Assembly: GCA_003487265.1 (NCBI GenBank)
Contig: DNEP01000006.1
Coordinates: forward strand, 3,276-67,275
Direction: 5' to 3'
DNA: 64,000 nucleotides
Origin: Minisyncoccota bacterium
GTDB lineage: Bacteria > Patescibacteriota > Microgenomatia > UBA1400 > UBA12028
The stretch's first letter is position 1, and the number at the start of each line of letters is the position of its first letter. Shown here piece after piece: positions 907 through 61,002 of the stretch. A program made the translations under genes and the position numbers. The notes under the pieces were generated by a model. It was not told where the DNA came from. It worked only from the letters and a program-made list of their open reading frames with translations, and did not search any database.

Positions 907-3150
907 TTATTGAAGTCCATAAAACTGAAGGGTCTTCACAATACCAAGTTGTGCCGTTGCGAGCGCTGATTCTGGCTCAACACCATTCACCGCCACGGCC
1001 GTCACCGCATCCTCAAGGTATTTTACAATTCGATCATTAATCCCCGTGTCGTGCGTGTCGGTGTTTGCGTACCATGATTTTGCCTGAGTTGTGCTTGAAA
1101 CAACTGCCCCAACAAATGGATCATCTTTTAACTCATCCAAAAGATCTTTTCGCGCGTACACCTCTCCAAATAGTCTTGGTGTTTTTTCTAACGCAGATCT
1201 GTACATTTTCGTCTGTTGCTCTTTCGAAGATAAAAACTGAAGAAACATCCATGCGCCATCTTTCTGTTTTGATTCTCGCGACACGCCTTCGACCCAGTAA
1301 TTCGCATAGTTCACGGTTGTCGTTTCAAGTTGTGGCACCGGAGCCATTCCAAAATCCAACGATGGGCTTTTTTGTCGAATCTCAAATGCTCTCCAAGAAG
1401 GCGCAAGTATCATTGCAACTTTTCCATCAGCAAACGCGGTCACCGAGTTGGGAAGTGTTGCATCCCACACTTTATCGGTTGTGGCAAATGATGTGTAGTA
1501 TGTTAATGCGTCAATTGCGGATTGAGAACTAAAATCTTTCATGTCCGCACCGTTCTGCATCATCAATAACGCGAGGATTTCAGAAAAATGATCAACATTT
1601 GTTGAAAGACCAACCGCTGCACCAGCACGTTCGATCTTTTTGCTTGTGTCGGCGGGTAATCGAAGCGCGGTCGCAGACTCACTAAATTCTTTCCATGTTG
1701 TTGGGGCTTCAAGCCCCGCTGTTGCAAAAGCTTGCTTGTTATAAAAAAGAACAAGCGAATCATACTGCAAGGGAATTCCCACCAATCCATCTTTTGTTTT
1801 TAAATCGGTGAGCGCAACCGGCAAAAATGTTTGATCAAACGTCAGCGAAGTAAAGATGTTGCTTGGAACAACAGCCAACTGAGACTTTAGCATTGGAACC
1901 CATGTTGCATGGTATCGAAAAACATCGGGCCCTTTCCCAGAAGAAATCGCGTCTTGCAACCGTTCGCGATAATCTTTTGAGGATTGTTGAACATAGCTCA
2001 CGGTAAATGTGGGGTTCTTCTGCTCGAACTCCGCAATCAATGGTTGCATGACAGCCGAAGACTCCCACAATCCCCAGTAGGTGATTGTTTTTTTTGTGGA
2101 TGAGGGTTTTTTATCTGAAGTCAAAGATTCAAGTGGACCCGCATTGGGAGATTTTGAAAAAATACCAAAAATCTTATCTGCAACAAACGCCAACACTCCA
2201 AAGAGTAATACAATTCCTACAATGAGTGGTAAAAATCGAAAAGGAGATTTTTTAACATCATTTGGAGTTGCATCCTCTGCGATTGGCTTGGGTTGCTCAA
2301 CGTTGGCGTCTGAAAGGGGAGCATCTGGAATTGGCGCAGATTCCACAGGTTGCGATGGTTCGGCGGGCTGCGGTGCTTGGAAAGGTTCTGGAAAAGACTG
2401 CGGTTGTTCGAAGGGTTGAGGTTGTTCAAGTGGTTGCGGTTGTTCGGATGATAATGGCTGTTCGGATGGTTGCACAGGCATCTCTTGTTGGGGAATCTGC
2501 TGTTGTCGTTCAATTGGATATTCGAGTGATGGCTCAATTGGTTGAACGTCGAAGGTATCAGCAGGAGTATATCCCGCAACAACCGGCGGTGTTTTTTGAT
2601 CATCAGAAGAAAAAACATCGACAGGAATCGGGAGATCTTGCGCGATGGATGGTGCGGACGAAAAAGGTTCTTGTGGTGCGGGAGGTTGAGGCTGCACTTC
2701 AGGTTGCAACTGTTCAAGCGGGGCCTTCTGTTCCGACGTGTTTTGAACTGTTCCCTGCCACGATTGATTGGGAACAGGTTGTTCTTGCGCGATATCTTGT
2801 GAACTGAGCTCTGCGGTTGGCGCATCTTCACCAGTTTCAGTTTCTACAGGAGACGAAGGTTCGGGTATCGCGGGATCCGCTTGCGGTGAAGACATTTTTT
2901 TCAAGTCTTCATTCATGGTGCGAAGCATCTCATTTAAATCGGAGGAAAGTGGGTCTTGATCCGAAGAAGACTTTTCGGGGGCGGATTCATCAACAGTAGG
3001 AGGGATTGGCGCTTGAAACACATCAGTAACAGAAGTTGATGCATCATTCCCATCATCTAGCAATTCAGGTTCTTCTGCCTGAGAAAGCGTTGCGGGAAGA
3101 ATTGGTGGTGGAAGGGTTTGGGCATCGTCTGGCATAATACACTCGTACAA
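907..3150 (-). CDS. ABC-transporter solute-binding protein (family 1, MalE-like) with a long N-terminal disordered region
   Basis: The C-terminal ~430 aa ('TITYWGLWESSAVMQPLIAEFEQKNP...') resemble sugar-type periplasmic binding proteins. It is preceded by a TM anchor ('FLPLIVGIVLLFGVLAFV') and a ~300-aa PEQ-rich low-complexity tail. Confidence 0.6.
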   Translation of the reverse strand: MYECIMPDDAQTLPPPILPATLSQAEEPELLDDGNDASTSVTDVFQAPIPPTVDESAPEKSSSDQDPLSSDLNEMLRTMNEDLKKMSSPQADPAIPEPSSPVETETGEDAPTAELSSQDIAQEQPVPNQSWQGTVQNTSEQKAPLEQLQPEVQPQPPAPQEPFSSAPSIAQDLPIPVDVFSSDDQKTPPVVAGYTPADTFDVQPIEPSLEYPIERQQQIPQQEMPVQPSEQPLSSEQPQPLEQPQPFEQPQSFPEPFQAPQPAEPSQPVESAPIPDAPLSDANVEQPKPIAEDATPNDVKKSPFRFLPLIVGIVLLFGVLAFVADKIFGIFSKSPNAGPLESLTSDKKPSSTKKTITYWGLWESSAVMQPLIAEFEQKNPTFTVSYVQQSSKDYRERLQDAISSGKGPDVFRYHATWVPMLKSQLAVVPSNIFTSLTFDQTFLPVALTDLKTKDGLVGIPLQYDSLVLFYNKQAFATAGLEAPTTWKEFSESATALRLPADTSKKIERAGAAVGLSTNVDHFSEILALLMMQNGADMKDFSSQSAIDALTYYTSFATTDKVWDATLPNSVTAFADGKVAMILAPSWRAFEIRQKSPSLDFGMAPVPQLETTTVNYANYWVEGVSRESKQKDGAWMFLQFLSSKEQQTKMYRSALEKTPRLFGEVYARKDLLDELKDDPFVGAVVSSTTQAKSWYANTDTHDTGINDRIVKYLEDAVTAVAVNGVEPESALATAQLGIVKTLQFYGLQ

Positions 3151-3183
3151 ACAAATATGATCTCATTTGAGCATACACAGTTC

Positions 3184-4968
3184 ATGAAAAGATTACAAGA
3201 ATATCGTCCGCTTGTTTTTGGAGCATCCGTCGCTCTTTTTTGTGTGTACCTCTGGGTTGAACTTGTTATCGGAAACTCGATAAAGATACTTCCATTTGTC
3301 AGCATAAACACTACTCGAATCGGCGGGCTCACTCCACAAGAAGCACAAACGCGTCTTGAAGATGTGTACAATCCAGAAAAAGTTCGCATATCGTTTGTCA
3401 TCGAAGTTGACGGGGTTGCGTCTGATTCGGCGATTGCGACAATGTCGGCAAAAGAACTTGGGCTTTCCTATCCTATAGATCATTCAGTTACGAAAGCATA
3501 TCAGCTCGGTCGATCGGGTTATTTTCTTCGTCGCATTCGCGAGATCTTCCAAAAATCTCACACGATCTCGCTCCAACCCGAATGGGATCGTGAGCGCCTT
3601 GATACGGTCGTCGACTCACTCCTCCATCAATACGAACAACCGTACACCCCATATTCTGTTTCGCTTGGGAAATCGGGATATTTTTCCACACTCGAGATTG
3701 AAGCAGGCACCTTTGGAACGACCAGCGATCTCTTAAAAACAACCGAGTCTATTATGCAAGCAGTTGCACATCTTGATCTGGACACAACCGACATGCATAT
3801 TCCTCTCGCGTATCACGCACACACCCCTCTCACATCCGAGGAGTACAAAACACTTCAAGAAAACGCAACGTATTTTGTTGGAAAATCTCCCGAACTCATC
3901 ATTTCAAACAAACACGCGAGTATTTCTGATCAGGAAATGATTTCTTTTCTTCATCCAAGGGGTGGATTGAACGGCGAAATACTTTCTCACTATATTGAGG
4001 AACTCAAAAAAAACATTGATCAAAATCCCGTTGAGCCTGTCTTGGAAATAGAACAAAATATCGTAGTGACATTTATCCCTCCCGAAGATGGTATTTCATT
4101 ACATTCCACGCAGGCGGTGCTCGAACTTCAGTCCGCATTAGAAAAAATGGTATCGGAAAAACCAAAAACACTCGATGCAATTACGCTTTCGTTTCAATCT
4201 ACCCCACCTACCCGCCCTCTCGAATCGACAAACACATTGGGAATCAAAGAGGTGATTGGGACAGGTGAGTCGTACTTTCATCATTCCATTCCCAATCGCG
4301 TTCACAATGTTAAACTCACATTCGATCGCATCCAACACGCGCTCATTCTTCCCGGAGAAACGTTTTCGTTCAATGCAACTGCTGGGGAAATTTCGTCACG
4401 CACGGGATTTAAACCCGCCTACGTTATTTCGAAAGGACAAACTGTGCTTGGAGATGGCGGTGGCGTATGTCAGGTCTCAACAACCGTTTTCCGTGCAACG
4501 CTCGATGCAGGACTTCCCATCGTGAAACGAAAAGGACATTCATATCGGGTGAGTTACTATGAAGAAAACTCAAAACCTGGATTTGACGCAACGGTATACG
4601 CACCCAGTACCGATTTTCAATTTGTAAATGATACTGCTCATGCGATTTTGTTACGTTCGTTTGTGGACACCGAGTTGCTCTACGCGCGCGTTGAGTTCTG
4701 GGGCACACAAGATGGCCGTGTAGCTGAAATTCAAAATTATAAACAATGGGGCGCTTCGCGCCCCCTCGCCACTCGATACGTTGACGACCCAACACTTCCC
4801 GCAGGAAAACTTCGACAGATCGACTGGTCGGCGCCAGGATTAAAAACATCGTTCGAGTACGTTGTGAAAAAGCCAAACAGCGACGGAAATCTCGAGGAGT
4901 CGCGCCAAGTTTTTTCGACCGTGTATCAACCGTGGGCGGCGGTATACCTGCGGGGCACGGGGAATTAA
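3184..4968 (+). CDS. VanW-family protein
   Basis: The motif 'GDGGGVCQVSTTVFRATLDAGLPIVKRKGHSYRVSYY' is typical of the VanW domain, and there is an N-terminal TM helix. I placed the start at the MKRLQEY codon to avoid overlap with the upstream minus-strand gene. Confidence 0.7.
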   Translation: MKRLQEYRPLVFGASVALFCVYLWVELVIGNSIKILPFVSINTTRIGGLTPQEAQTRLEDVYNPEKVRISFVIEVDGVASDSAIATMSAKELGLSYPIDHSVTKAYQLGRSGYFLRRIREIFQKSHTISLQPEWDRERLDTVVDSLLHQYEQPYTPYSVSLGKSGYFSTLEIEAGTFGTTSDLLKTTESIMQAVAHLDLDTTDMHIPLAYHAHTPLTSEEYKTLQENATYFVGKSPELIISNKHASISDQEMISFLHPRGGLNGEILSHYIEELKKNIDQNPVEPVLEIEQNIVVTFIPPEDGISLHSTQAVLELQSALEKMVSEKPKTLDAITLSFQSTPPTRPLESTNTLGIKEVIGTGESYFHHSIPNRVHNVKLTFDRIQHALILPGETFSFNATAGEISSRTGFKPAYVISKGQTVLGDGGGVCQVSTTVFRATLDAGLPIVKRKGHSYRVSYYEENSKPGFDATVYAPSTDFQFVNDTAHAILLRSFVDTELLYARVEFWGTQDGRVAEIQNYKQWGASRPLATRYVDDPTLPAGKLRQIDWSAPGLKTSFEYVVKKPNSDGNLEESRQVFSTVYQPWAAVYLRGTGN

Positions 4969-18830: not shown

Positions 18831-20720
18831 TTATATGGTGGCAGACGCCCGTTGTTCGCTCGCTCTTTTTTGTAATATTTCTTCAGGATCCGTTGTGATA
18901 AGTTGGTGCTCTTGTTCGCTCGCGATTACGCGAATGGCAACGTGACTTTGTCCAGCAAAAAAGAGTCCCTCTCCTACATCCGAGCCCATAAGAAAGCGCC
19001 TTTCCCCCTCACTGAGATAGAATACTTGTGTGAGATGGGGGATTGCCGCGCTTGACTGTTTCATGAGGAATTGGATTGATGAGTTAGTGACGATCGCTTT
19101 TCCGTATTCATTGTTCAAAAAATCCTCAACATCTTGAGTAATTGTGGTGATCCCGAGATAATATTTTCGCGCACGTTTCGCCATTGCGTGAAGGAAGGAT
19201 GCACTATCTTGATAGCGCATAAAGTACCACGCCTCATCAACGATAAGAATGCGCTTTTTTAGAGAACTACGAATACGCGTCCAGATAAAATCAAGAATAA
19301 TAAACATTGCGATAGGTCGAAGGGAATCTTCCATTTCTTTTACAGAAAACACAGTCAGTTGATTTTTAATATCAATGTTTGATGCTTGATCAAATATTCC
19401 AGCAAACGAACCCGACGTGAATTTTTCCAGTCGTACGGCGAGCGATTGCGCTTCTGGCGAACTGATCGCTTTTAATGTCTGGAAAAGATCAACCATCTGC
19501 GGTGGTGTGCGCGATTGTGTGTTTGAATCTGGGGTAATTCCCTTTTTCTGGTATGTCTCAACTAGCGCGCGGTCTAATATCGCATCTTCGGTTGGGGAAA
19601 GTTGTCCAAGCATCACGCGTAACAGCGAATGAATGGAGATGATTTTCATTCCCAACTCATTTTCACCTTCTTGCTTTGAAGAACTTAAGTCAAAAGGATT
19701 GATTTTTTTATCTGAATCGAATGAGAATTGAACGTATTCACCACCCATTGCTCCGCACAGTTTTTCGTATTCATTTTCTGGATCAAGAACGATTACTTCG
19801 GCGTCAAACATGAGCTGTCGCAAAATTTCCAGTTTAACGGCGTACGATTTTCCAGCACCAGATTTCGCAAACACAACCATGTTCGCGTTTTCCATTTGGA
19901 ACCGATCAAACACAACAAGCGAATCGTTATGTTCGTTAATTCCATATAAAATCCCTCGATCGCTGGTGAGTTCGGCGGATGCGAAGGGGAATGTTGTGGC
20001 TAGGGAAGTTGTGTCCATATTTCTCGTGATACGTAATTTATCTACTCCCATGGGCGTGGTTGTTTTAAAGCCGTCCTCGATTTGTAAGGATGCTATTTTA
20101 CTCACAATTAACAGAGAGCCGAGGAGCGAGCGAACCTTATTCGTGATTTTATTTAATGCCTCCAACGAACTGTCGCTAATGGTGATGTACAATCCAAACT
20201 GGAAAAAACGCTCCGCACCTTTTGCGAGCTGTTCTTGAATAAGTCTCGCGTCTTCGAGTTTAATTTCTGTGTTGATGTTGCTTAATTTCCCTTGTCGAAC
20301 ATCCGAAGAGATCTCCGCTTCCATTTCTGTGATTTTTCTTCGAAGATCATCCAAGATTTCTTTTACTTCAATCGGGAAAATGTGCATTGAGATATCGAGT
20401 GAGTGGGGAAAATTAATAAGTGGCGCGAGCCAGTTTGCGGGGACGGTTCTGGGGTATCCTGCAACAAACAGGGTGCGAATGTAGGTTGAGTTGATTTTTT
20501 GATAGGTAAAATCAACCTCGATTGCTTCTGGGGCAATAATATCTTGAATACTTACAAGCCCCGCCGAAAATGTGCGAATTTGATCATCGAGCGACGCTTG
20601 CACGCTTTTTCCTGCAGGCGTTGTGATGTTTGTTTGCGCTGAAGATTTCCCCTGAGATTCGTTTTGGCGAGTGTTTACATGAGGTGTTTTTTTTGTAAAA
20701 AAGGGGAGAGAGATTGCCAT
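18831..20720 (-). CDS. VirB4/TraC/TrbE-family type IV secretion ATPase (Gram-positive PrgJ/TcpF-like)
   Basis: 629 aa. The Walker A 'VVFAKSGAGKSYAVK' and Walker B region 'RILIVDEAWYFM' are present. 'LGITTITQDVEDFL' matches the conserved VirB4 C-terminal motif block. This is the AAA_10/DUF87 architecture. Confidence 0.75.
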   Translation of the reverse strand: MAISLPFFTKKTPHVNTRQNESQGKSSAQTNITTPAGKSVQASLDDQIRTFSAGLVSIQDIIAPEAIEVDFTYQKINSTYIRTLFVAGYPRTVPANWLAPLINFPHSLDISMHIFPIEVKEILDDLRRKITEMEAEISSDVRQGKLSNINTEIKLEDARLIQEQLAKGAERFFQFGLYITISDSSLEALNKITNKVRSLLGSLLIVSKIASLQIEDGFKTTTPMGVDKLRITRNMDTTSLATTFPFASAELTSDRGILYGINEHNDSLVVFDRFQMENANMVVFAKSGAGKSYAVKLEILRQLMFDAEVIVLDPENEYEKLCGAMGGEYVQFSFDSDKKINPFDLSSSKQEGENELGMKIISIHSLLRVMLGQLSPTEDAILDRALVETYQKKGITPDSNTQSRTPPQMVDLFQTLKAISSPEAQSLAVRLEKFTSGSFAGIFDQASNIDIKNQLTVFSVKEMEDSLRPIAMFIILDFIWTRIRSSLKKRILIVDEAWYFMRYQDSASFLHAMAKRARKYYLGITTITQDVEDFLNNEYGKAIVTNSSIQFLMKQSSAAIPHLTQVFYLSEGERRFLMGSDVGEGLFFAGQSHVAIRVIASEQEHQLITTDPEEILQKRASEQRASATI

Positions 20721-20760
20721 AATGTCATCTTAGCAGGTTCGTGTGATATCTCGCAATGAA

Positions 20761-21456
20761 TTAGCGCGATTGAACCACTGGACTTGTGTACGCCTTTGAA
20801 CTCTCCACAATTTGACCATCAGAAGATCCTGGATTGTAGATGGTGTAGAAAATATGAATAAGTTCTTGAGTGTTGAGTTGTTTAACAATAATTCCAATGC
20901 GCGCAAGTTGTGAAATAATGTGATCGCGTTTTGGTTCAAGATCGGTTTTTGCTTTTTCAATAAGTTGCGGAATGTTAATTTGTGATTCTTGCGTTGATTT
21001 TTGCTTTTTAAATGGAAAAGGTGATGTTGGAAGGATTGAAGAAAGGGTGCTCGATTGATATGAAATGACAAGATAGAATTTTTTATCCAAAATGTTTCGC
21101 TCTTTCACAAGTGTGGAAACAAACTCTCGATACTGCGCGATTTGCGCGCGTTTTTGTGGGGCGTGTGTTCCACGCTCGGTTTCTTGAAGATGTCCCAAAT
21201 AACCCGAGATGTCTTTTTTTTGTGATCGAATGACAATTTGTATTGGAAAAGAAAGAGAATTGAGAATTCCCGCGTATGTGTAAATCATCGCTTCTTGTTC
21301 TTCTTCAGAGAGAAGATCAAAGTTAACCGATGATGCCGACATCACCATACTTGCCGTGCCATCACGAAGTAAAACGAGATTGTTCGTAATATCTAAAACA
21401 TCAAGAAATTCTTGCGTTGTTGATGAAAGGTGGTTGGAGGATGAGTGGGCGCTCAT
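20761..21456 (-). CDS. Hypothetical soluble protein immediately upstream of the VirB4-like gene
   Basis: 231 aa with no TM segment and no recognisable motif. It is co-oriented and tightly spaced with its neighbours. Confidence 0.35.
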   Translation of the reverse strand: MSAHSSSNHLSSTTQEFLDVLDITNNLVLLRDGTASMVMSASSVNFDLLSEEEQEAMIYTYAGILNSLSFPIQIVIRSQKKDISGYLGHLQETERGTHAPQKRAQIAQYREFVSTLVKERNILDKKFYLVISYQSSTLSSILPTSPFPFKKQKSTQESQINIPQLIEKAKTDLEPKRDHIISQLARIGIIVKQLNTQELIHIFYTIYNPGSSDGQIVESSKAYTSPVVQSR

Positions 21457-21465
21457 AGTGGTAGT

Positions 21466-22515
21466 TTAGGAGGTTTTCGCGAGAAATTCTAGCGGAGGAA
21501 TAATGGTGTTATTTGTAGTGAGTGTGTAGTTGTTAAATTCGAGGCCGTTTTTTTCTGTGCGAATACTAAAAGCTCCATTTTGTAGGGGGGATGTAATAAA
21601 GAATTGTCCTAATTTGTTCGTTTTGACTGCGCGCACCGCGATGCCCGTTTGATCAACAATTTCCACAATTGCCCCATCAACAATTTTACGATTTTGGTCG
21701 AGTACCATTCCAACAACAACGTTTGGTTGTTTTGGAGTTGATGGGAAGGGGAGACTACTATTTGTTTTCACCGCGATTTCCTGTTGGGTGGTAGTTTTAA
21801 TCACATTTTGTGCAAATGTGTGCAGCGTTTGTGTTGTTTCACCACGTTCTTCTTGTTGTTTTGATTTGTTTTGTGCCGCCTCAAATACGGTGACTTTTCC
21901 CGAAGGTTTAAGGAGGACTGATGAGGGTTGATGTGATTGTTTTTCAGCCGTAGATTGTTGGGTGGTAATAGGTTGGGTTGCTGGAGGAATAACGCGTTGT
22001 ATTTGTGCATGAGGCTTGGATTGTTGTAATGTGATAGGCGTTTTGTTGTTATGAAACAGTTGTGTGATGTTTTTTGAGTTCACAAAAAGATCATTTGGCT
22101 CAGACTGTGTTGAAATGGACTCAAAATACGCGCGAACTCGTTCGGAGCGTCCGATTTTTTGGTCGAGAAGGGGTTGCGATCGATCTCCTAATTTTTGTTG
22201 AATATACGCGAACGCATCTGGAATGCGGATTGTTTTTTTCCAGTAAAATTTTGTTGGTTTGTATATCGCGTGTAGGAACGCAACAACCCATTGATCTAGG
22301 GGGCGTTCTTCGAGCGGAACAAACGCAAACGCCGCTCCTGTGCCAATAATGATAAACACGAGAAAGAGTTTGAGTATGTTTGGAAGCGCGATCGAGTACA
22401 CGAGGAGCGCAACACCAACCGATCCAAGTAACTCGAAGAATTGCTTGAGCGTCATGTTTCCAATGAGGTGAAACTCGTACGCAGTGATATTCTGCGGGAC
22501 AGGATGCTCGATCAT
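21466..22515 (-). CDS. PrgI/VirB3-like membrane protein fused to a C-terminal beta-sandwich (carboxypeptidase-regulatory-like) domain
   Basis: The N-terminus 'EFHLIGNMTLKQFFELLGSVGVALLVY...FVFIIIGTGAAFAFVPLEERPLDQWVVAFL' matches the PrgI-family pattern: a two-TM hairpin ending in 'P-x-x-x-RPLDEW'. The C-terminal 'VVGMVLDQNRKIVDGAIVEIVD...FSIRTEKNGLEF' looks like a CarboxypepD_reg/Cna-B-type fold. Confidence 0.5.
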   Translation of the reverse strand: MIEHPVPQNITAYEFHLIGNMTLKQFFELLGSVGVALLVYSIALPNILKLFLVFIIIGTGAAFAFVPLEERPLDQWVVAFLHAIYKPTKFYWKKTIRIPDAFAYIQQKLGDRSQPLLDQKIGRSERVRAYFESISTQSEPNDLFVNSKNITQLFHNNKTPITLQQSKPHAQIQRVIPPATQPITTQQSTAEKQSHQPSSVLLKPSGKVTVFEAAQNKSKQQEERGETTQTLHTFAQNVIKTTTQQEIAVKTNSSLPFPSTPKQPNVVVGMVLDQNRKIVDGAIVEIVDQTGIAVRAVKTNKLGQFFITSPLQNGAFSIRTEKNGLEFNNYTLTTNNTIIPPLEFLAKTS

Positions 22516-22580: not shown

Positions 22581-23594
22581 TTATTCTGTTTGGATTGCGG
22601 AGGTCATCACCTCAATGGTTGCGGAATTTCCTTCGGCGTCCATTGCTGTTCCTGAAAAAATAGCGAAAGGCATAATGGTGTTTGTTGATGGAATCGTTTG
22701 ATATTCAATGCGCATTGTAAAAAGTTTTGAGGATCGCAATTCTTTTGGGGTGAGTAGTTTTCCGGAAATCTGGTATGAAAGAAGGGAGTATTCCCCATTC
22801 TTCATTGAAGAAATCATCTCTGGAATTGAACGCACATTTGCATGACCGCCATCAACTGGTTGATATGCGACGTTGTGAATGAATATTTTTCGAACATATC
22901 CTTGCGAATCAACAAGAACGGTTGCTGGGTTGTTTGTTGTTCCTGTATGAGAAAACGAATATCCTGAAAAGGAAAGAGAAAAAGGAATAGAAAAATAGGT
23001 TGCCTGCTCTTCGATTGTTTGGGTGAGTTCACTTTCCCCCTTCAAAAATTGAATATTGGAAAGTTGTGGCGCGAGCTCTAATGTTGGAGAAAAGAGCGCG
23101 AGCGCCTCTTTTGCCAGAAGAATCGCTTCTTCTGTGCGCACGGTTTGCATTTCGGTTTGTGGTGGAATATTTCCCGTATACCGTATGGTATTTGTTTCAC
23201 TGTCATAAAAAAGGGAATACCCAAATTCTTTTTGTGTCCACAATGATGTTGATGAGCTTTTTTCCATATTCCACGCTATTGCGAGTTCTTGTAGTTTTGT
23301 GAGTGAAATGGGGGGGAGACTGTTTTGGTTTTGATAAATAGGGAGCGTTTTTGGAAGGGTTGGTGTTGGCCCAATGTATTCAAATGTTTGAATATTTTGT
23401 TCCTGTGTGAGTGTTGTTTGAATGCTGGGCTTTTCGGGAACAACGATTGGGGGTTCACTGGGGAGTGGTTGCCTGTTTTGTAACAGGGTGAGAATGAGTT
23501 GTAAAACAAAAACGAGGATTGTTGCGAGAATAATGAATGTAATAAACCATCGTTTCACCGGAATTTGTTTTTTTATTTGGATGTTTGTATTCAT
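22581..23594 (-). CDS. Bitopic membrane protein (candidate VirB8/PrgL-like component)
   Basis: Single N-terminal TM 'WFITFIILATILVFVLQLILTLL' followed by a ~300-aa extracytoplasmic region. I chose the start at the MNTNIQ codon, which leaves a 4-nt overlap with the upstream gene. Confidence 0.35.
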   Translation of the reverse strand: MNTNIQIKKQIPVKRWFITFIILATILVFVLQLILTLLQNRQPLPSEPPIVVPEKPSIQTTLTQEQNIQTFEYIGPTPTLPKTLPIYQNQNSLPPISLTKLQELAIAWNMEKSSSTSLWTQKEFGYSLFYDSETNTIRYTGNIPPQTEMQTVRTEEAILLAKEALALFSPTLELAPQLSNIQFLKGESELTQTIEEQATYFSIPFSLSFSGYSFSHTGTTNNPATVLVDSQGYVRKIFIHNVAYQPVDGGHANVRSIPEMISSMKNGEYSLLSYQISGKLLTPKELRSSKLFTMRIEYQTIPSTNTIMPFAIFSGTAMDAEGNSATIEVMTSAIQTE

Positions 23595-26440
23595 TCTTCC
23601 TCCTGTTGTGCGCCTTCGGTGTTTTGCGATGCGTCGGGGGAACAAGAAGATGTGACATAATCATTTATCGCAACGTCCGGATCGGGAACGGCCTCAAGAA
23701 TATTGATCCCTAAGGCTTCATAATGAAGGTGATTCCCGGTGGAATTTCCAGTTGAATCGGTTTTTCCAATAAGATCTCCAACTTGTATAGACATGGAACT
23801 GTTTTCTGGCATTCCAGCGAAGTTTAAAAGGTGGGCAAAAATAAACACAAGACCGTCGTCGGAAAGGAGAACGACATGCTTTCCATATCCTGGGTCAAGT
23901 CCATTACCCTCTGCATAAAACAGCGCTTTACCAGAAAATGGGGCGTACACAGGTTCATCTGCTCCAAGCACAATGTCGAGCGCAGATCCAGGCCCAGAAA
24001 CATATTCTCCAGATATGTTTGGAATTGAGGATGTGTACACGGCGTGGGGATCTCCGTTAGTGTAGAATTCCCCCAACTGCGTAACTGTTCCACTTACAGG
24101 CCAGCATCCCACACTTGCAACCCCTTGACCGTGAAGTGTTGAGGTGGGGTCAAGCATCATAATATCCGACTGATTTGCGGTGTTTGCGGTAAAAATACGA
24201 ACCGCGATTAACGCCGGAATGGTGATTGCCATTCCAGATGATGCTGAAAAGATAGGTGATTTGCTTGCAATCGAAGCGCCGACCGAACCCAACCCACTTG
24301 CTCCACCCATCGCCCCCTGTCCTCCAACCGCTCCTGCAACTTTTGAGCCACCCGCAACTCCCGCACTCGTCGCTCCCCCTCCTCCGCCCCCTCCACCCAA
24401 AAATGACATGAGTTTCATTGCCCCCATAGCCATTGCGAGCAAACCACTTGCTATAAGTGCAAGCAAACTCAGCAAGATTTTTACAAGCTTTCCCAATCGG
24501 GAAACAGTGTTGAGAAGAAAATCTTCTGTGGCCTCTCCAACAATGGGAATTTTTCTTAACAACTCAGCATATTTAAACGTCTGGTCTAGCGCGGGAATTG
24601 CCCCCGCTCCCCCAGGGATAAAAGTGAGTGCGGTGGTAAGTGCTTTTTTTCCAAGTTCATAATCCGCTTCGTTAAATTCTCTATTTTGCGCTGTGCTTTC
24701 TCCAGAAATTGCAGGAAGCGCGCCAAACGAATCTGGTTCAGAATAAAAGAAATCAAAATCTTTACCAAAAAACTCACCAGCCGATTCAAGAGAAGTTGAA
24801 CCATGATAATACGCGAGAAAACGCTGCCTTTGTTCTTCGGTGGCCGTTGCCCACGCGTGTTGGGTGCCCAAAATTTTCCCCATTTTATACTTGAGTGCAC
24901 GTTGTGCAGAGGAGAATTCTCGACGTTCCCTCTCATTTTCTTCTGCTTGTAGTTTTGCTTGATTTTCAAGTGCATCTCTTCGAATGTACATTCCGCGAGA
25001 CACAATGCGATATCCCTGAAGAAAAACATCTTCCTCAAGTCCTTTGAGTGAGTTTTGATCGAGTGGGAGTGGAGAATGTACTGCGTTATTGTGTGTGTCA
25101 CGCGCAACACTGTTTCGCACGAGTCGAATATATGCGCTAAATGACTCTGCCCAATCTGTATCATAAATGGTGTGCAAGAAGGGGAGAATGCGCGACCGTT
25201 CTTCGTCGGTTAATAAATCTTCAAAAATTCTCTCAAATTGTTTTATGTTAATCGTGTCGATGGTGTGTCCAGAGATTGCCAAGGTTTGGAGTCGAACCAT
25301 AATTCTACGAATGTCGGACTCGGGAATGTTTGCTTTTTGCAAAAGTTGTTCAAGTTGTTCCTCCATAAAAGCTGTTGACGCTTGAGTGGTCCACCCAGCT
25401 TTTTCGAGTTTTTTCTGATCGATGTTTTGAAGAACTTTGCCCGCAGTTTCATCTTCAATAATTGCTTTTACAAGATCCTCAATCTTGGGAGGTTCAACGT
25501 TATTTTTTGCAAGCGAGGTGAGCTGTGTTTTGAGCGACAGTTGAAAATGTGCATCAAGTGAGAGTCGCTGCAAACATTGGATGTACAGTTTTTGCCGTCC
25601 GTCAAACGAGGTGAGCGTGCGAATCAAATCTTCACCGGTGAGTTGTGATAACTCAAATAAAACTATATTTGAGGTTGCGGGAAGGAGGTCGCTGATAAAC
25701 TTTTCGCGTTCTTGATCGTCGGTTATGCCGTATGAAATCGCTAGTCGTGCAAGAAGTGACTGTCGAACGAGGGTAACCTGATTCCGAAGCTCTCTGTCGG
25801 ACTTTAAGATGTCTGTTAACGAAAGATTTTGTTTTTCTTCTTCTTTTTCTCGCTTTTCTTCTTCTTTTTTGTCTTTCTCTTGCATTGCGGGGATCGCAAT
25901 CCCAGCGGATCTCGGTTGATCGCCTGCCGCCACAGGTTGTTCCCCAACCGCCGCCTTTTCTTCTTCGGTTTGTGGCGATCGCAATTCTTCTTCTGATAAA
26001 TCATGCGCTTCCCGCGCAATTTCAATAAGCGTTTCAGCCTCGCGCAACTGTGTGAGAAGATCTGAAAGTTTTTGATCGGGAGAGAGGCGACGTTCTATAC
26101 TGTATTCTTCAAAAATTTCATGCCCGAACAAATCATGATCGACTTTTTTTGGAATAATATAACGAATGGTGAGAATGAGCACCCAAAGTTGATTAAATGA
26201 CAACCTTCCCAGCGTTTGATCGTCGGGGTGATCAATCATCTCGCGAAGCATTGCTTTGTATCCACCGGAGGTTTGAATGCGGGATAAAACGCCCAACGAA
26301 CGATCCGCGAGATCATATGATCGCTTCATGTAGTCGCGCAACGCATACGCGACCTTACTTATGTTTTCATCTTGAAGGTGTTCGCGGGTAAAAAATGATC
26401 GAATTGGCGCGCTATCCAGCATACGCGTATTGTACCGCAT
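23591..26440 (-). CDS. Large membrane protein with a C-terminal M23 (LytM) peptidase domain
   Basis: 949 aa. The C-terminus 'GYGKHVVLLSDDGLVFIFAHLLNF...IGKTDSTGNSTGNHLHYE' matches the M23 zinc-site H-x-x-x-D ... H-x-H arrangement. A poly-Gly/Ala segment ('GGGGGGGGATSAGVAGG...') is flanked by two TM helices. The N-terminal ~600 aa are helical with a KE-rich coiled coil. Confidence 0.65.
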   Translation of the reverse strand: MRYNTRMLDSAPIRSFFTREHLQDENISKVAYALRDYMKRSYDLADRSLGVLSRIQTSGGYKAMLREMIDHPDDQTLGRLSFNQLWVLILTIRYIIPKKVDHDLFGHEIFEEYSIERRLSPDQKLSDLLTQLREAETLIEIAREAHDLSEEELRSPQTEEEKAAVGEQPVAAGDQPRSAGIAIPAMQEKDKKEEEKREKEEEKQNLSLTDILKSDRELRNQVTLVRQSLLARLAISYGITDDQEREKFISDLLPATSNIVLFELSQLTGEDLIRTLTSFDGRQKLYIQCLQRLSLDAHFQLSLKTQLTSLAKNNVEPPKIEDLVKAIIEDETAGKVLQNIDQKKLEKAGWTTQASTAFMEEQLEQLLQKANIPESDIRRIMVRLQTLAISGHTIDTINIKQFERIFEDLLTDEERSRILPFLHTIYDTDWAESFSAYIRLVRNSVARDTHNNAVHSPLPLDQNSLKGLEEDVFLQGYRIVSRGMYIRRDALENQAKLQAEENERERREFSSAQRALKYKMGKILGTQHAWATATEEQRQRFLAYYHGSTSLESAGEFFGKDFDFFYSEPDSFGALPAISGESTAQNREFNEADYELGKKALTTALTFIPGGAGAIPALDQTFKYAELLRKIPIVGEATEDFLLNTVSRLGKLVKILLSLLALIASGLLAMAMGAMKLMSFLGGGGGGGGATSAGVAGGSKVAGAVGGQGAMGGASGLGSVGASIASKSPIFSASSGMAITIPALIAVRIFTANTANQSDIMMLDPTSTLHGQGVASVGCWPVSGTVTQLGEFYTNGDPHAVYTSSIPNISGEYVSGPGSALDIVLGADEPVYAPFSGKALFYAEGNGLDPGYGKHVVLLSDDGLVFIFAHLLNFAGMPENSSMSIQVGDLIGKTDSTGNSTGNHLHYEALGINILEAVPDPDVAINDYVTSSCSPDASQNTEGAQQEEE

Positions 26441-28337
26441 TTGATTGTTCGGTTGCTGCGGCAGTAGGTGTGTGTGCGGGCGATGATTTTGTTGGAGCGT
26501 CTGTGCAGTTTTCGCAAATGTATCCCATTGTTATGAATGGGTTGTACGAAACTCCCGCAAACGATGCGATAAAGTTGTCAACTCCAACGTAGCCGTGCGA
26601 AGTTGTGGTTGAAAAAACGCCGTCTTTCTCTTGTTTTTCAGCTCCTTTACCTAATGTGTCCCTCATTTCGCATGCAAAACACACATCGCATTCGCCAACT
26701 CCACCATCAAGGTGTTTGTAATGAAACTTTCCATCGTTGCACATTTTACATGTTCCATCGTGCCACGCCGTTTCCCATCGTTTGGGTTTGTTGTGATTGA
26801 TGATTCGAATTTTTTCGTCGAGCGTGAGTGATTCTGTTCGAACGGCGCGTTGAAACTCTTCAAGCGAAGAAAAGCGCGATGGAATGCCCAAACCAAGGCT
26901 GTTTGTAGAAATGGAAGAAGCAAAATTGGGATTTAATCGTGTTATTCCTCCGGCTGATCCTGCGGTACAGTCAACAACGCTCACAACCCTTTTTAACACA
27001 TGACTCATTGAGGTATTTTGAAACGAACTAAAAAGGGCGTTGCGCGCAGAAACAAGCGCGGTTCCTTTATGTGATTGAAACACTTCCGGTTTTGCAACTT
27101 TTTCATATTGTTCCCATGCAACCGCGGAATCAAACATTTTTTGTTGCAAAATCGTGTTGAGCGCGACCTCGGCATTCATAAGAATAAGCGCCTCGGCTTG
27201 ATCAATAGAAATGTGTTTTTTCAATAACAATCCCCACACATCAAGAAAAATATCTGTGAGAAACTGTGATGACTCAGCAATAATCGGTTGATAGATCGTT
27301 CTAAAAAGATTCATCGCCTCTTGTTGTGCGACCGCGAGTTGCGCAATCTCCTCGGCGGGAAGCGCGTTTGTGAGAAGTGATGAAAAAAACGGCTCAACCT
27401 CTTCATATGCGAATGGGGGGTGAATAATGTGCGCGCGCATGATTTCCGATTCGGTGGGCGCCGAAGATGTGCGAGATGCCGAAGCCTCCCCCACCCCCCA
27501 CGTTTTCACAAATTCTGATATTGCTTGCGCGTGTTCTTGATGGGAAAAATCGTTGAATGCTTGATGAAGTAAAATAATCCACGCGTCTTTTGTGGGGAGA
27601 TAGCAGACACGATACACATTCCAAAATGATTTTCCCTCTTTGTAGGTTTGCGTATTAGACGGATACACCGCGAAAACTGGCGGGCCTATGAGTACGGGGG
27701 GGCGCTCGTTGGCATCTAGTCCGAGTCCCGCAAGCGCCTCGGTGGGAAGGGGCGCGGTGTACCACCCCCAACCCTCGGGTGGGGTGGGGAGAGGTTCATC
27801 TTCAGATTGCGCGAGTGCGTTAATATACGTGTGCGCAACTTCCGGTAGATTTTCCGCAATAAACTGCAAAAGTTCGAGCGTCTCGATAGCAAGGCGTTCC
27901 TCTTTTTTATATCGGTCCTCAAACGGATTTCCCAAGGCAGATTGAAAATTGGGATTTCGTCTTGCGTACTCAATCGCCTTTTTGCACTGTTCGCGGATTG
28001 TTCCACTATACAAAGGCAGTGCGGCATCCCATTTTCCCTGTTCATTTACAAGCGGAATCATTGCGGTTTCATGAAAGGGAAGGTGGAGTTCTTCTTTAAT
28101 CGCCGACTCAAAAATAAACTGCAGGTGAAGAAAAAACTCATGCTCGATTTTTTCCCAATTTCCCTCATGTTTCCCAATTAATTCTGCGCCTTTTGAAGCC
28201 CATGCGTGAAATAGGTTGAGAAGTGCGACGCGCGTGAGTTGAGAATATTCCGAGGTTTGTAGTGCGCGTTTTTCAACGGCTTGACGCAGTTTTTTTGTTT
28301 CAGTTCTAGATAATTGTGGTTGAAGATGTTCTCGCAT
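26412..28337 (-). CDS. Large hypothetical protein with a Cys-rich (zinc-ribbon-like) C-terminus
   Basis: 641 aa with no TM segment. The C-terminal cluster 'CKMCNDGKFHYKHLDGGVGECDVCFACEM...CENC' is zinc-ribbon-like. It is co-oriented with the M23 gene and overlaps it by 29 nt. Confidence 0.4.
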   Translation of the reverse strand: MREHLQPQLSRTETKKLRQAVEKRALQTSEYSQLTRVALLNLFHAWASKGAELIGKHEGNWEKIEHEFFLHLQFIFESAIKEELHLPFHETAMIPLVNEQGKWDAALPLYSGTIREQCKKAIEYARRNPNFQSALGNPFEDRYKKEERLAIETLELLQFIAENLPEVAHTYINALAQSEDEPLPTPPEGWGWYTAPLPTEALAGLGLDANERPPVLIGPPVFAVYPSNTQTYKEGKSFWNVYRVCYLPTKDAWIILLHQAFNDFSHQEHAQAISEFVKTWGVGEASASRTSSAPTESEIMRAHIIHPPFAYEEVEPFFSSLLTNALPAEEIAQLAVAQQEAMNLFRTIYQPIIAESSQFLTDIFLDVWGLLLKKHISIDQAEALILMNAEVALNTILQQKMFDSAVAWEQYEKVAKPEVFQSHKGTALVSARNALFSSFQNTSMSHVLKRVVSVVDCTAGSAGGITRLNPNFASSISTNSLGLGIPSRFSSLEEFQRAVRTESLTLDEKIRIINHNKPKRWETAWHDGTCKMCNDGKFHYKHLDGGVGECDVCFACEMRDTLGKGAEKQEKDGVFSTTTSHGYVGVDNFIASFAGVSYNPFITMGYICENCTDAPTKSSPAHTPTAAATEQSNAVQYAYAG

Positions 28338-28675
28338 GTGATCTTTCTGATGTGATTCTTCGTGCGAGCGAGGAAATCTATCAAACGATCACAGGAGCAG
28401 TGCTGTGCGTAGCGCTTGAATCCGAAGCCCCACACGATGTCTCGTTCCTGGCTTAGGTGTTGCTTTCGAAAAGCGACACCCACACAGTTGCGGTACAGCC
28501 CGCGATTTACACGCGGTTCCGAGTAGATCCACTATGATCGAGTCGAGGAAAGATTGCAAGAGGGTGATGTGCGTTTTGTGCGCGCGTGCTTTGCGCGCCT
28601 TGAATCTTTTTCGAACCGCCCCTTGATTTTCCAGATGATTCCCTGATATGAATAGATACAGAAAGTGAGGCGAAT

Positions 28676-33898: not shown

Positions 33899-35548
33899 CT
33901 ATTTCAGATCTTCAATTGGAATATCTGCGTAGCCCTCTGGGAATGAAGTTTGTGGTGCGTCAGTGTATGTATTTTCAACTCCAGAGCTTGTCTTCGATTG
34001 AAGATTCTTTTCCTGTAATCCTTTATAAACGCGAGTTCCATACTTCCCACCTCCCATAAACACACCATCTTTCATCCATCCTGGGGTGGACTTCACAAAC
34101 TTCGTTCCACCTGCCAGACCGCCGGCGCCGGGGATTCTGCTCCATTCCATGCCGGGAATAATCTTGTCGCCTTCCCAACCTTTAGTCAAATTCTTCTGAA
34201 TTTCTGGGATGTATTTTTCAAAGAAGCCTTCTTTGGCTCCGGACATTTCCTTTGCGATCTTGATGGAGGAGGGGAGCATCATGAGAATTCCGAGTGCGAT
34301 CAGCGCTTGGGTGGCTCGCACGGCCTCCTGTGTGGAGGCGTTTCTTCCATCTGAAATCAGTGGGGGCATAAATCCACCAGATGTTGATTGATATCCGATA
34401 TCGCCTTTTCCAAATCCTCCAAGTGTCATCGCGAGTAACAGCATCACGAGTACGACGGGGAATGGGAGAAGGCGACCGATCATATTCTTGATCCACTGCA
34501 TAAACCCACCCCCTTGCTCGAGAAGCGTGTTCAGCGCAAGCTCGATTGGTGAAAAAATCAAAGAAACAAGAAAACCAACATACGACTTTACCAGTTCAAA
34601 CCACGTTTGAATGACAACAAACAGCAACGCAATGGAAAGGACAACATTCATCAAAATATTTGAGGTGAGCGAAAGCGCAGAAGAAAACCATTTAATCACT
34701 TCTGGCCCAGAAAGGACGCCGTCGACCATATCACCAACGCCGCTACCAATTGTTTGAATCATGGATCCGTTTGTGCCGCCACCATTCCATACCGCTCCCC
34801 AACCGATTGCGAAGATGCTTTGCGAAAATGCGATCTCGGTTAAGGAGACTTCGACTCCGCCGATTTTTGGATTGTTCATCAAACCAGAAAAGATTCCAAC
34901 AAATAAGTACATCGTCACGTACATCAAATCAACAATTAATCCGGCAATGGCGTAGGAAAAAGTTACAATGATCAAGCTGACAACAACGCGCGGGATTGCG
35001 GTTGCAACGGTCATCACGGCTTGGCCGCCGAGTTTTTGGCGGAAAATAATCGCAAACCCAATCACCACAAAAAATAATGCATAAAATCCGTATGCGACGT
35101 TCAAAAATGTTTTCCAGATTGGAAGAATGGGGGTGAGACTCGCAAAACCAACGCCTCCCACACTTTGTGCGTACGCGGGAGGTGCAAACTTTGAGTGTTG
35201 CGCTAAATCTTGAACGTATTGGCCAACGCCCGCGGGGGGAGTGCGATACATAAACGCAATTGCCCGACCAAATCCAGAAATCGCGCTGTCCTTTGATCCA
35301 CCAGTCGTGTTTGCAATTGAGGCCATATCAAGTAAGAATCCGGTTTTACGCCAACACTCCATAGAAAGGGAGCCTGTTTGCTGACAATGATCATATGCAG
35401 ACTCAGCTGAGTCCATCGTGGGAAAATTGTATTTTTCATCTTCTTGTGCGTATGTTGTTGGAACAGAAACAATAAGTGACAGGAGAATGCCCGAAAAAAA
35501 GATCGCTCCCATTGTAAACACACTAATAAATCGGCGCATACTCACCAT
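33899..35548 (-). CDS. Polytopic membrane protein, VirB6/TrbL-like candidate
   Basis: 549 aa. A signal-peptide-like N-terminus is followed by a periplasmic segment and then 6 or more TM helices rich in G/A/I/L/V ('VMTVATAIPRVVVSLIIVTFSYAIAGLIVDLMYV...'). This is the VirB6/TrbL-type topology. Confidence 0.45.
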   Translation of the reverse strand: MVSMRRFISVFTMGAIFFSGILLSLIVSVPTTYAQEDEKYNFPTMDSAESAYDHCQQTGSLSMECWRKTGFLLDMASIANTTGGSKDSAISGFGRAIAFMYRTPPAGVGQYVQDLAQHSKFAPPAYAQSVGGVGFASLTPILPIWKTFLNVAYGFYALFFVVIGFAIIFRQKLGGQAVMTVATAIPRVVVSLIIVTFSYAIAGLIVDLMYVTMYLFVGIFSGLMNNPKIGGVEVSLTEIAFSQSIFAIGWGAVWNGGGTNGSMIQTIGSGVGDMVDGVLSGPEVIKWFSSALSLTSNILMNVVLSIALLFVVIQTWFELVKSYVGFLVSLIFSPIELALNTLLEQGGGFMQWIKNMIGRLLPFPVVLVMLLLAMTLGGFGKGDIGYQSTSGGFMPPLISDGRNASTQEAVRATQALIALGILMMLPSSIKIAKEMSGAKEGFFEKYIPEIQKNLTKGWEGDKIIPGMEWSRIPGAGGLAGGTKFVKSTPGWMKDGVFMGGGKYGTRVYKGLQEKNLQSKTSSGVENTYTDAPQTSFPEGYADIPIEDLK

Positions 35549-60183: not shown

Positions 60184-61002
60184 TTACTCAAGATTTTCCA
60201 GTTGTGCAAATACAATTCCGCGTCGAAGGTACGTTCCGGGGGGCGTACAGGTGATCAACTTGAGTTCTTTTGTGTCGTGACGCTGAGAAAGAATGTAGGT
60301 ATCGTCTGGTTTTACCTCCATTTTATTCGTGACGCGGTAGGTGTAGGTGATGCCGTCGTAGGTCACGATGATTTTGTCATCCTTTTTTAACTGCATGATC
60401 TTGGTGAAAATGGAAATGTATCGGCGCGGATTTGATTCCGAAGGATTGTAAAAAAGTTGCGATACGGAGTGTCCAAAGATCACCGGCGACCCAAGCTCCC
60501 CCGGATTCGCGGTACCAGGGTACTGAATGAGCGATTTGTCGAGATTTAATCCACCAATATTCACCATTGCGTTGCTGATATTCAAGCTGGGGATACTAAT
60601 GGAATATTGTTCTGCTTTTTCTTCGTCAACCTGTGGAATTTCTTTCCATGGAAACCATTGCGAAAGATTAATGTACTCAAGTTCTTCCTCGATTACAATT
60701 GGTCCGGACTCGCGTTGCTGTGTTTCAACGGGTTTCGCGATGGTTGCAGGGGGAGCTGTTTGCGTTTGAACGGGAGCTGCGGAAAGATACACCTCTTCTT
60801 TTGCCGATGAGATCGGAGAAATGAACAACTGATATGACACAATCGGCCACACCACATTTGCGAGCAACATGCTTCCAATGGTGATTAAACTTGCGGGAAG
60901 GATCGCTTGCTTGTTAAACAAGGAAAACGCCCGAACTGGCTTTGTTGGCGCGGTTACGGGTGGTTGCGTTGGTGTTGCTTTTCGGTACACTTTGATGGGC
61001 AT
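60184..61002 (-). CDS. Sortase-family transpeptidase
   Basis: N-terminal TM anchor. 'SPVIFGHSV' contains the catalytic His, and 'LKLITCTPPGTYLRRGIVF' is the TLxTC Cys motif with the downstream Arg. Confidence 0.65.
   Translation of the reverse strand: MPIKVYRKATPTQPPVTAPTKPVRAFSLFNKQAILPASLITIGSMLLANVVWPIVSYQLFISPISSAKEEVYLSAAPVQTQTAPPATIAKPVETQQRESGPIVIEEELEYINLSQWFPWKEIPQVDEEKAEQYSISIPSLNISNAMVNIGGLNLDKSLIQYPGTANPGELGSPVIFGHSVSQLFYNPSESNPRRYISIFTKIMQLKKDDKIIVTYDGITYTYRVTNKMEVKPDDTYILSQRHDTKELKLITCTPPGTYLRRGIVFAQLENLE

Follow-up and report, generated by a model that had tools for sequence, protein, structure and literature searches.

Within a 64,000-nucleotide (nt) stretch of contig DNEP01000006.1 from an ultra-small Minisyncoccota bacterium (Patescibacteriota, Microgenomatia), hereafter referred to as the window, a minus-strand gene at 23591..26440 encodes a 949-amino-acid (aa) protein in which a long helical scaffold is fused, through a membrane module, to a C-terminal M23 peptidoglycan-hydrolase-type domain. 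Our analysis showed that this C-terminal enzyme and the gene directly downstream of it are exchanged as one cassette between close relatives, and that the gene encoding the fusion stands in the operon of a type IV secretion system (T4SS). The protein appears to be a member of a small, apparently undescribed family with a scaffold, a membrane module, and an exchangeable C-terminal enzyme, and in this it appears to combine two known kinds of feature, namely a T4SS-associated wall hydrolase and a polymorphic enzyme/partner cassette. The open reading frame (ORF) that an initial annotation had placed here is real (stop codon at 23591-23593), and an identical protein is present in public records of metagenome-assembled genomes of the Microgenomates group and “Pacebacteria”, where it is called a “Glycine-rich cell wall protein”. 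These records annotate the start as either M1 (949 aa) or M7 (ATG at 26422, giving 943 aa), and we favor M7 because it is the only invariant column in the start region of the family alignment.

When aa 1-640 were searched exhaustively with phmmer against 1.84 billion representative proteins, 15 relatives of the scaffold were recovered (E values from 2e-24 to 5e-5), most of which are 870-1220 aa in length. Species-representative genomes scanned with a tight sub-alignment yielded one locus, and none with the single protein. Three types of C-terminal enzyme were found on this one scaffold. Most members carry an M23 domain, P0015 carries a CHAP domain (PF05257, 28.7 bits), and P0007, P0008, P0011, and the protein of locus L005 (134-3373) end in a module of about 200 aa with the invariant pattern H-E-x-x-H...D...E-x-F-A-E, which we refer to as the HExxH type. 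This last module had no significant relative in Pfam or the PDB, and its only match was a weak one to DUF6782. The exchange itself can be seen in two independent pairs of closely related loci. In the first pair, L007 (M23) and L009 (HExxH), the T4SS proteins encoded next to the cassette are 93% (VirB4), 83% (TraC-like), and 78% (PrgI) identical and the scaffolds are 58% identical (aa 1-862), after which identity drops to 8-22% directly following “...LQTVLFSAFLTPRTGG”, and the genes that follow, of 348 and 188 aa, have no relationship to each other (E = 0.24). In the second pair, L010 (M23) and L005 (HExxH), the scaffolds are 79% and the PrgI proteins 93% identical, the DNA homology (85.6% over 2,227 nt) reaches no farther than this same junction, and there is again no relationship between the downstream genes (E = 4.3). 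The breakpoint in both pairs lies just after the last hydrophobic segment, which in the relatives ends in an “FLT(P)R”-type motif that marks the site of recombination.

The downstream partner gene in the window lies at 22581..23594 on the minus strand and encodes 337 aa. The mechanically called ORF is longer (354 aa, 22581-23645, from a TTG at 23645), and the real start is the ATG at 23594, which shares bases with the M23 gene's stop codon (ATGA) and has an AGGAGG Shine-Dalgarno sequence ahead of it; the two genes are translationally coupled. All partners consist of an N-terminal transmembrane (TM) anchor followed by a soluble domain, with the TM segment of the window partner at aa 37-55 of the 354-aa ORF; the partner of the CHAP-type locus, L003, is 220 aa long. 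Homology between partners was found only within an enzyme type, both among the five M23-type partners (E values from 1e-8 to 1e-43) and among the three HExxH-type partners (1e-18 to 1e-46), and comparisons across types gave E values of at least 0.045. Across nine loci the type of partner tracks the type of enzyme perfectly, and the divergence of the PrgI-like proteins of these loci (36-60% identity) is unrelated to enzyme type. The idea that the partner types share a hidden core was rejected, as profile-profile comparison with hhalign gave a probability of 0.4%.

Judged at the level of sequence, the conserved N-terminal region, the sharp breakpoint at the junction, the unrelated C-terminal enzymes, and the co-varying, translationally coupled downstream gene together form a toxin/immunity-like signature of the kind that marks polymorphic enzyme/immunity cassettes tied to secretion systems. 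The LXG toxins of the type VII secretion system (T7SS), type VI secretion system (T6SS) effectors, and the X-Tfe/X-Tfi pairs of Xanthomonas and Stenotrophomonas share with this family a constant N-terminal region, variable C-terminal enzymes, and a breakpoint at the junction between them. They also share a next gene that co-varies with the enzyme, a product of that gene that sits where a wall-degrading enzyme would act, and linkage to a secretion system. There are differences as well. No homology of the scaffold to a known trafficking domain, be it LXG, XVIPCD, or another, was found in Pfam or NCBIfam, the scaffold and the enzyme are separated by strongly hydrophobic segments, and there is one copy in a fixed slot of a core operon, with secretion and immunity only inferred. 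The secretion system is also of another kind, being the monoderm-type T4SS of an epibiont with no recognized coupling protein.

The operon in question is the chromosomal, oriC-proximal, MPF-FATA-derived T4SS that has been described for Patescibacteria, where it lies near dnaA (PMC12102498). Its genes lie on the same strand with tight spacing, in the order 641-aa gene, 949-aa gene, 354-aa partner ORF, PrgI/VirB3-like gene (21466-22515, minus strand; Pfam PrgI), a TrsD/TraC-like gene of 231 aa (20761-21456, minus strand; Pfam P-loop_TraG and NCBIfam TrsD), and the VirB4 ATPase gene (18831-20720, minus strand; Pfam CagE_TrbE_VirB and NCBIfam conju_CD1110, 395 bits). The three downstream T4SS core genes thus identified with Pfam and NCBIfam together occupy 18831..22515 on the minus strand; dnaN and dnaA come directly after VirB4, and rnpA/yidC/jag are found farther on. 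Conservation of the slot was judged on loci that are long enough, which L002 is not. A family member occupies the same slot in six loci that reach VirB4 (L001, L003, L004, L005, L007, and L009), one of which, L004, keeps the slot with VirB4 moved upstream, and L010 has the same gene order up to the end of its contig inside the PrgI-like gene. The Patescibacterial T4SS is essential in the saccharibacterium Southlakia epibionticum; it lacks a relaxase and a coupling protein, and its transport function is unknown (PMC10633639, PMC12857230). The association of VirB1-type hydrolases with virB4 has been found to be poor in most classes and outside Paceibacteria, with VirB1 homologs missing near virB4 in most classes (PMC12102498). 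The same survey makes no mention of the scaffold family, an immunity-like partner, or a riboswitch.

This setting recalls the wall hydrolases of conjugative T4SSs in Gram-positive bacteria, and the initial annotation had drawn a parallel to PrgK and TcpG. The parallel stands as far as the operon is concerned, given the PrgI, TrsD/TraC-like, and VirB4 genes beside the fusion, and fails at the level of sequence, where no homology to PrgK was found. PrgK of pCF10 is encoded right after PrgI and VirB4 and has a basic N-terminal domain of about 250 aa, one TM segment, and then lysozyme and CHAP domains. PrgK and TraG of pIP501 share with our protein a gene position beside PrgI/VirB3 and VirB4 in an MPF-FATA-type cluster, a non-enzymatic N-terminal domain followed by a membrane segment and one or more wall-hydrolase domains, and hydrolase domains that are modular across systems, those of PrgK including a LytM domain. 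In contrast to PrgK and TraG, the scaffold here is 2.5 times longer and acidic and helical rather than basic, there is a second hydrophobic segment together with a Gly/Ala/Ser-rich region, and M23 is the only enzyme domain; no Pfam match to SLT, lysozyme, CHAP, or NlpC/P60 was found in the 949-aa protein. The locus is also chromosomal, with no relaxase among the window ORFs that were scanned, and an enzyme swap with a cognate downstream gene has not been described for PrgK or TraG.

The main rival reading, possible if doubtful, is that the protein is an ordinary assembly hydrolase of the VirB1/PrgK type, in which segment 1 would be the anchor, the N-terminal domain would lie inside and the enzyme outside, opening only the producer's own peptidoglycan for assembly of the T4SS, and the downstream gene would encode a structural subunit (VirB8-like, for example) or a regulator. 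The neighborhood resembles the prgI-prgJ(VirB4)-prgK arrangement of pCF10, and PrgK is built in a similar way, from a cytoplasmic N-terminal domain of about 250 aa, a single TM segment, and hydrolase domains outside the cell. Mixing of hydrolase domains, LytM among them, is known from Gram-positive VirB1-like proteins (PMC12857230), and in Microgenomatia, where VirB6 is scarce, homologs of VirB1 and VirB8 are otherwise missing near virB4 (PMC12102498). The partner has the N-terminal TM segment and soluble domain typical of VirB8-like proteins. However, the enzyme and the downstream gene have been replaced jointly in genomes whose VirB4 and PrgI proteins are 78-93% identical. The wall chemistry of the producer should not shift so fast, and a structural subunit should not track the type of enzyme, so the exchange counts against an enzyme acting on the producer's own wall. 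The partner types also lack a common core, even at the profile-profile level, and both the second hydrophobic segment, which is foreign to the PrgK layout, and the lack of sequence similarity to PrgK speak against this explanation.

The exchangeable module of the window protein comprises aa 778-949 (23594..24109, minus strand), as delimited with Pfam and an AlphaFold2 (AF2) model, and consists of a GCWP junction, the M23 domain, and a tail with Cys933. The M23 assignment of the initial annotation was borne out. The only Pfam domain of the protein is Peptidase_M23 (PF01551) at aa 820-909 (23714-23983, minus strand; 47.7 bits against a gathering threshold of 28.7, E = 1.8e-12), and the AF2 model of aa 766-949 is confident (pLDDT 83.9, pTM 0.82) and has the M23/LytM fold, matching LytM, lysostaphin, Csd1/Csd2, NMB0315, and StM23 with a Foldseek probability of 1.0. 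The active site had been described as an intact H-x-x-x-D ... H-L-H, and only part of this description holds. H904-L-H906 and H870 (in “AHL”) are in place, but the HxxxD motif is absent, as the residue four positions before Asp822 is Gly818 (G818-S-A-L-D822), and the same is true of all eight M23-bearing relatives. Residue-level alignments to solved M23 chains begin at SALD. The C-terminal modules of the eight relatives are 31-44% identical and have only 22 invariant columns, among them C779, H799, D822, H870, H904, H906, E908, and C933. The sole candidate for the first zinc ligand is His799, invariant in the family and located 22 residues before Asp822, a spacing that ranges from 9 to 27 residues across the family. 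Its position resembles the H-x(n)-D arrangement of the M23A enzymes, and we consider it a candidate alternative ligand. One relative, P0009 (976 aa), ends shortly after the M23 A-L-D motif with an unrelated C-terminal sequence, which may reflect a frameshift or a decaying warhead.

The M23A enzymes are secreted and contain disulfides. Beta-lytic protease and LasA share with our protein the M23 fold, an HxH motif with a third catalytic His, and a zinc-binding His/Asp pair split by a long loop (H22...D36 in beta-lytic protease; PMC8715609). In beta-lytic protease, catalysis relies on His22, Asp36, His82, His121, and His123, and enzymes with H-x13-D spacing are active (PMC8715609). In this family, by contrast, the spacing is longer and variable, the Pfam and PDB sequence matches of the protein are of the M23B type, and there is no pre-pro region, the domain being fused to a large scaffold. 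From the conserved residues, the zinc site is probably intact in a non-canonical, M23A-like arrangement.

An improbable alternative is that the M23 domain has lost catalysis and plays a regulatory part as a LytM-type domain, like those of EnvC, NlpD, and PrgK, activating or positioning a different hydrolase and cutting no peptidoglycan itself. Gly818 stands where the first zinc ligand would canonically be, the degenerate LytM domains of Csd2, EnvC, and DipM are among the top structural matches, and the LytM domain of PrgK has been reported to be regulatory (PMC12857230). Against this, all eight relatives retain four of the five canonical residues together with the invariant upstream His799. 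Degenerate LytM domains usually lose several catalytic residues. A long spacing between His and Asp is also compatible with activity in the M23A enzymes cited above, and the alternative modules look catalytic, the CHAP domain having its Cys and His and the HExxH motif being intact.

AF2, given the family alignment as input, predicted the N-terminal region of about 650 aa to be all-alpha. Its first helical block, A (aa 14-155; 25976..26401, minus strand), consists of helices with a pLDDT of about 70-88. Block B (aa 205-650; 24491..25828, minus strand), delimited with alignments and AF2, has a pLDDT of 70-87 at aa 205-500 and low values at aa 520-590, leaving aa 14-155 and aa 205-500 as the moderately confident blocks. 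The most conserved motifs of the scaffold in the family alignments, DRxxRxExxRIQ...YGxPE and IPIxGE, are found in block B. Between the blocks lies a linker of acidic and basic residues (aa 156-204; 25829..25975, minus strand) that varies in length across the family and includes the KE repeat EKDKKEEEKREKEEEKQ (aa 188-204), which the initial annotation had quoted exactly and taken for a coiled coil. We do not retain the latter view, as the region was modeled with low confidence or as disordered (pLDDT 33-55). Because of these values and a 7-aa deletion within the linker of a near-identical strain (P0018), it is better called a disordered linker of variable length; all relatives have K/E-rich tracts at this position. 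The N-terminus is leaderless, with no signal peptide, and a possible third TM segment at aa 600-618 was dismissed, since its hydrophobicity is weak (Kyte-Doolittle, KD, 1.35) and it was modeled as helix-break-helix.

That the N-terminal part has no obvious relatives, as had been stated, is essentially right. Beyond the 15 representatives, there was no Pfam, NCBIfam, or PHROG match outside the M23 domain, no fold match for the helical scaffold in the PDB, and no match for the N-terminal 640 aa in 72,556 plasmids or 50,697 phage records searched with tblastn. These results bear on a further explanation, that the protein is an enzyme of general wall turnover or of division, or is what is left of a phage tape-measure protein, and has no functional link to the adjoining T4SS genes. 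Some phage tape-measure proteins have a long helical region, hydrophobic Gly-rich segments, and a C-terminal M23 domain. Such tape-measure and ejection proteins thus share with our protein the long helical N-terminal part, the hydrophobic Gly-rich segments, and the C-terminal M23 domain, the PHROG tape-measure families match its M23 part, and the public annotation says nothing beyond a Gly-rich cell wall protein. However, there is no similarity to tape-measure proteins outside M23, the neighboring genes are those of the T4SS and of replication, and the phage collection gave no match. A tape-measure or prophage origin was rejected on these grounds, with the PHROG matches limited to aa ~798-929, no phage or plasmid match for the N-terminal part, and no flanking phage genes. 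The operon slot is moreover conserved in every locus in which it could be judged, with genes overlapping or tightly spaced, and we consider the absence of a functional link to the T4SS very improbable.

The membrane module follows the scaffold. As had been claimed, two hydrophobic segments bracket a Gly-rich stretch. Segment 1 (aa 652-681; 24398..24487, minus strand) is a strong TM candidate with a KD value of 2.37 and has equivalents in all relatives (KD 2.0-2.5). Segment 2 (about aa 728-751; 24188..24259, minus strand) is borderline with a KD value of 1.64. The stretch between them is Gly-rich and almost free of charge (aa 682-727; 24260..24397, minus strand) and begins with a run of eight Gly residues, G8 (aa 682-689); the string quoted by the initial annotation, GGGGGGGGATSAGVAGGSKVAGAVGGQGAMGGASG, corresponds exactly to aa 682-716. 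The order is the same in all family members: first a segment of strong hydrophobicity, then a stretch rich in Gly/Ala/Ser and nearly without charge (G+A+S 30-44% in relatives), and last a hydrophobic segment that is weaker. The G8 run itself is lineage-specific: no distant relative has it, and near-identical strains carry it unaltered. The suggestion that the run is a pentaglycine-like substrate mimic is not upheld, as G8 is not conserved and the conserved trait is the charge-poor Gly/Ala/Ser-rich region. Variation of the run among strains, which had been proposed as a check, was not seen, and with an identical run in near-identical strains and mixed Gly codons, slippage was rejected. Lipoprotein processing at “GC” was likewise rejected, as the preceding residues, read from the sequence, form no lipobox.

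The charges flanking the hydrophobic segments are ambiguous as to sidedness. There are several possible ways in which the enzyme could be placed outside: segment 2 may not span the membrane, the chain may be processed, or the whole protein may be exported through the T4SS. The invariant C779/C933 pair hints at a disulfide and in turn at an extracytoplasmic working place, and the N-terminal TM anchors of all partners and the location of the substrate can be taken as hints in the same direction.

We propose that the scaffold would link the enzyme with the T4SS, serving as a subunit associated with the machine or being exported as a substrate, and that the M23 domain would work outside the cytoplasm, where it would cut the peptide cross-links in peptidoglycan that lies in the way of the T4SS. 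The target would more probably be the wall of the attached host cell than that of the producer, and the co-exchanged downstream protein, the bulk of which is predicted to lie outside the membrane, would be a cognate inhibitor or immunity factor that shields the producer's wall. The replacement of warheads between genomes with 93% identical VirB4 suggests selection from an external target, namely the host wall, with the partner protecting the producer. Sequence and synteny establish the identity of the domain, the conserved catalytic residues, the place in the operon, the exchange of the cassette with its breakpoint, and the coupling of translation. The enzymatic activity, the extracytoplasmic place, the dependence on the T4SS, the target wall, and the protective role of the partner are what we infer here, and for the mechanism as a whole, a T4SS-coupled M23 warhead against the host wall with a partner that protects the producer, we see about an even chance of being correct.

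Several results weigh against this proposal. With two hydrophobic segments, no signal peptide, and an N-terminus of 650 aa, the simplest topology puts the enzyme in the cytoplasm, and this location, which the initial annotation had itself named as incompatible with its view, is what a plain two-TM hydropathy reading gives. Secreted substrates do not usually contain a segment as strongly hydrophobic as segment 1. The window yielded no coupling protein of the VirD4 type, so a route for substrate recruitment is not evident. The best BLASTP match to PrgK had an E value of 0.15, and no known T4SS hydrolase scaffold was found to be homologous, PrgK having been compared by sequence and TcpG, TraG, and CwlT not having been compared directly. 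To these can be added the missing HxxxD motif of the M23 domain and the HExxH module, which has no known function, so that the status of a wall hydrolase is not established for all warheads. The co-variation of enzyme and partner was observed in a sample of nine loci, only one of which is of the CHAP type. A more far-reaching version of the proposal, which we regard as unlikely, would make the family the first identifiable cargo or weapon of the Patescibacterial T4SS, a polymorphic effector that breaches the host wall. In such a scenario the scaffold would serve as the recognition and translocation module, the hydrophobic, Gly/Ala/Ser-rich hairpin would insert at the interface between epibiont and host, the warhead would be matched to the host wall and neutralized in the producer by the membrane-anchored partner, and deployment of the whole operon would be controlled by a riboswitch according to corrinoid availability.

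The element behind this last idea lies at the head of the operon. A cobalamin-riboswitch-like aptamer (28422..28570, minus strand; Rfam RF00174, 37.5 bits against a gathering threshold of 31.5) was found 85 nt upstream of the first gene, and an equivalent aptamer precedes the homologous first gene in seven of the seven loci that include this region. The RF00174 copies outside the window are at 8031-8185 in L001, 6870-6996 in L003, 18404-18483 (minus strand) in L004, 6304-6427 in L007, 6293-6424 in L009, and 5423-5561 in L010, and in L007, L009, and L010 the 3' end of the aptamer overlaps the start codon. Scores range from 27.2 to about 37.5 bits, with three copies at or above the gathering threshold, two lying 0.2-0.4 bits below it, and two 3-4 bits below it. 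In four aligned copies the core is nearly invariant though the neighboring proteins have no more than 15-27% identity, and two compensatory pair changes were seen in one hairpin. A literature search returned no paper linking a cobalamin riboswitch with candidate phyla radiation (CPR) bacteria or with T4SSs. The first gene itself (26412..28337, minus strand) encodes a 641-aa protein that lacks a TM segment and has an invariant CxxC...CxxCxxC cluster. The gene runs 29 nt into the beginning of the 949-aa gene, or 11 nt with M7 as the start. The protein had no match in Pfam, NCBIfam, or PHROG, and homologs of 516-590 aa are encoded in all syntenic loci, with C530, C533, C550, C553, and C556 invariant. 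In L004, the first gene has been relocated, away from the T4SS genes, and retains its aptamer, and the aptamer is therefore tied primarily to the 641-aa gene family.

Other features of the window and of the compared loci were recorded alongside. The 231-aa gene has matches both in the N-terminal region of long VirB4 proteins and in the TrsD/TraD family (NCBIfam; “TraC-like” in Pfam in the relatives), so the VirB4 function looks split between TrsD-like and TrsE-like genes, in the manner of the pGO1-type subclass. An extra C-terminal domain of the PrgI-like protein is CarboxypepD_reg-like. Near the T4SS operon, the ORF at 33899-35548 (minus strand) encodes a protein of 549 aa with about seven predicted TM segments and no Pfam match, and equivalents of comparable length are found close to the operon elsewhere among the loci; the protein is a candidate VirB6-like channel subunit, a part that is “missing” in Microgenomatia. 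Other wall-related genes in the window encode a VanW/PG_binding_4 protein (3118-4968, plus strand) and a SpoIID-domain protein (46512-48257, plus strand). An ORF of 806 aa at 61024-63444 (minus strand) gave a weak Baseplate_J-like match (24.6 bits) and, together with its neighbors at 60184-61002 and 63447-63959, may be part of a phage-like or contractile-injection-type module. The contig of L005 (CAYILC010000013.1) has the T4SS-dnaN-dnaA arrangement typical of CPR bacteria, yet its record is labeled “uncultured Pseudomonadales bacterium”, which is probably a binning or labeling error.

The T4SS of Patescibacteria is widespread, adjacent to the origin, and essential for epibiotic growth in one tractable species, and both its cargo and the way in which two cell walls are crossed are unexplained (PMC10633639, PMC12102498, PMC12857230). 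The new elements reported here are a scaffold family of about 650 aa, an M23 variant with expanded His...Asp spacing, and a pointer to corrinoid-responsive control of the operon. A conserved occupant of this operon, found in genomes of the Microgenomates type, that has an exchangeable enzyme and partner is a testable candidate for the breaching of the wall, and possibly a secreted effector/immunity pair.

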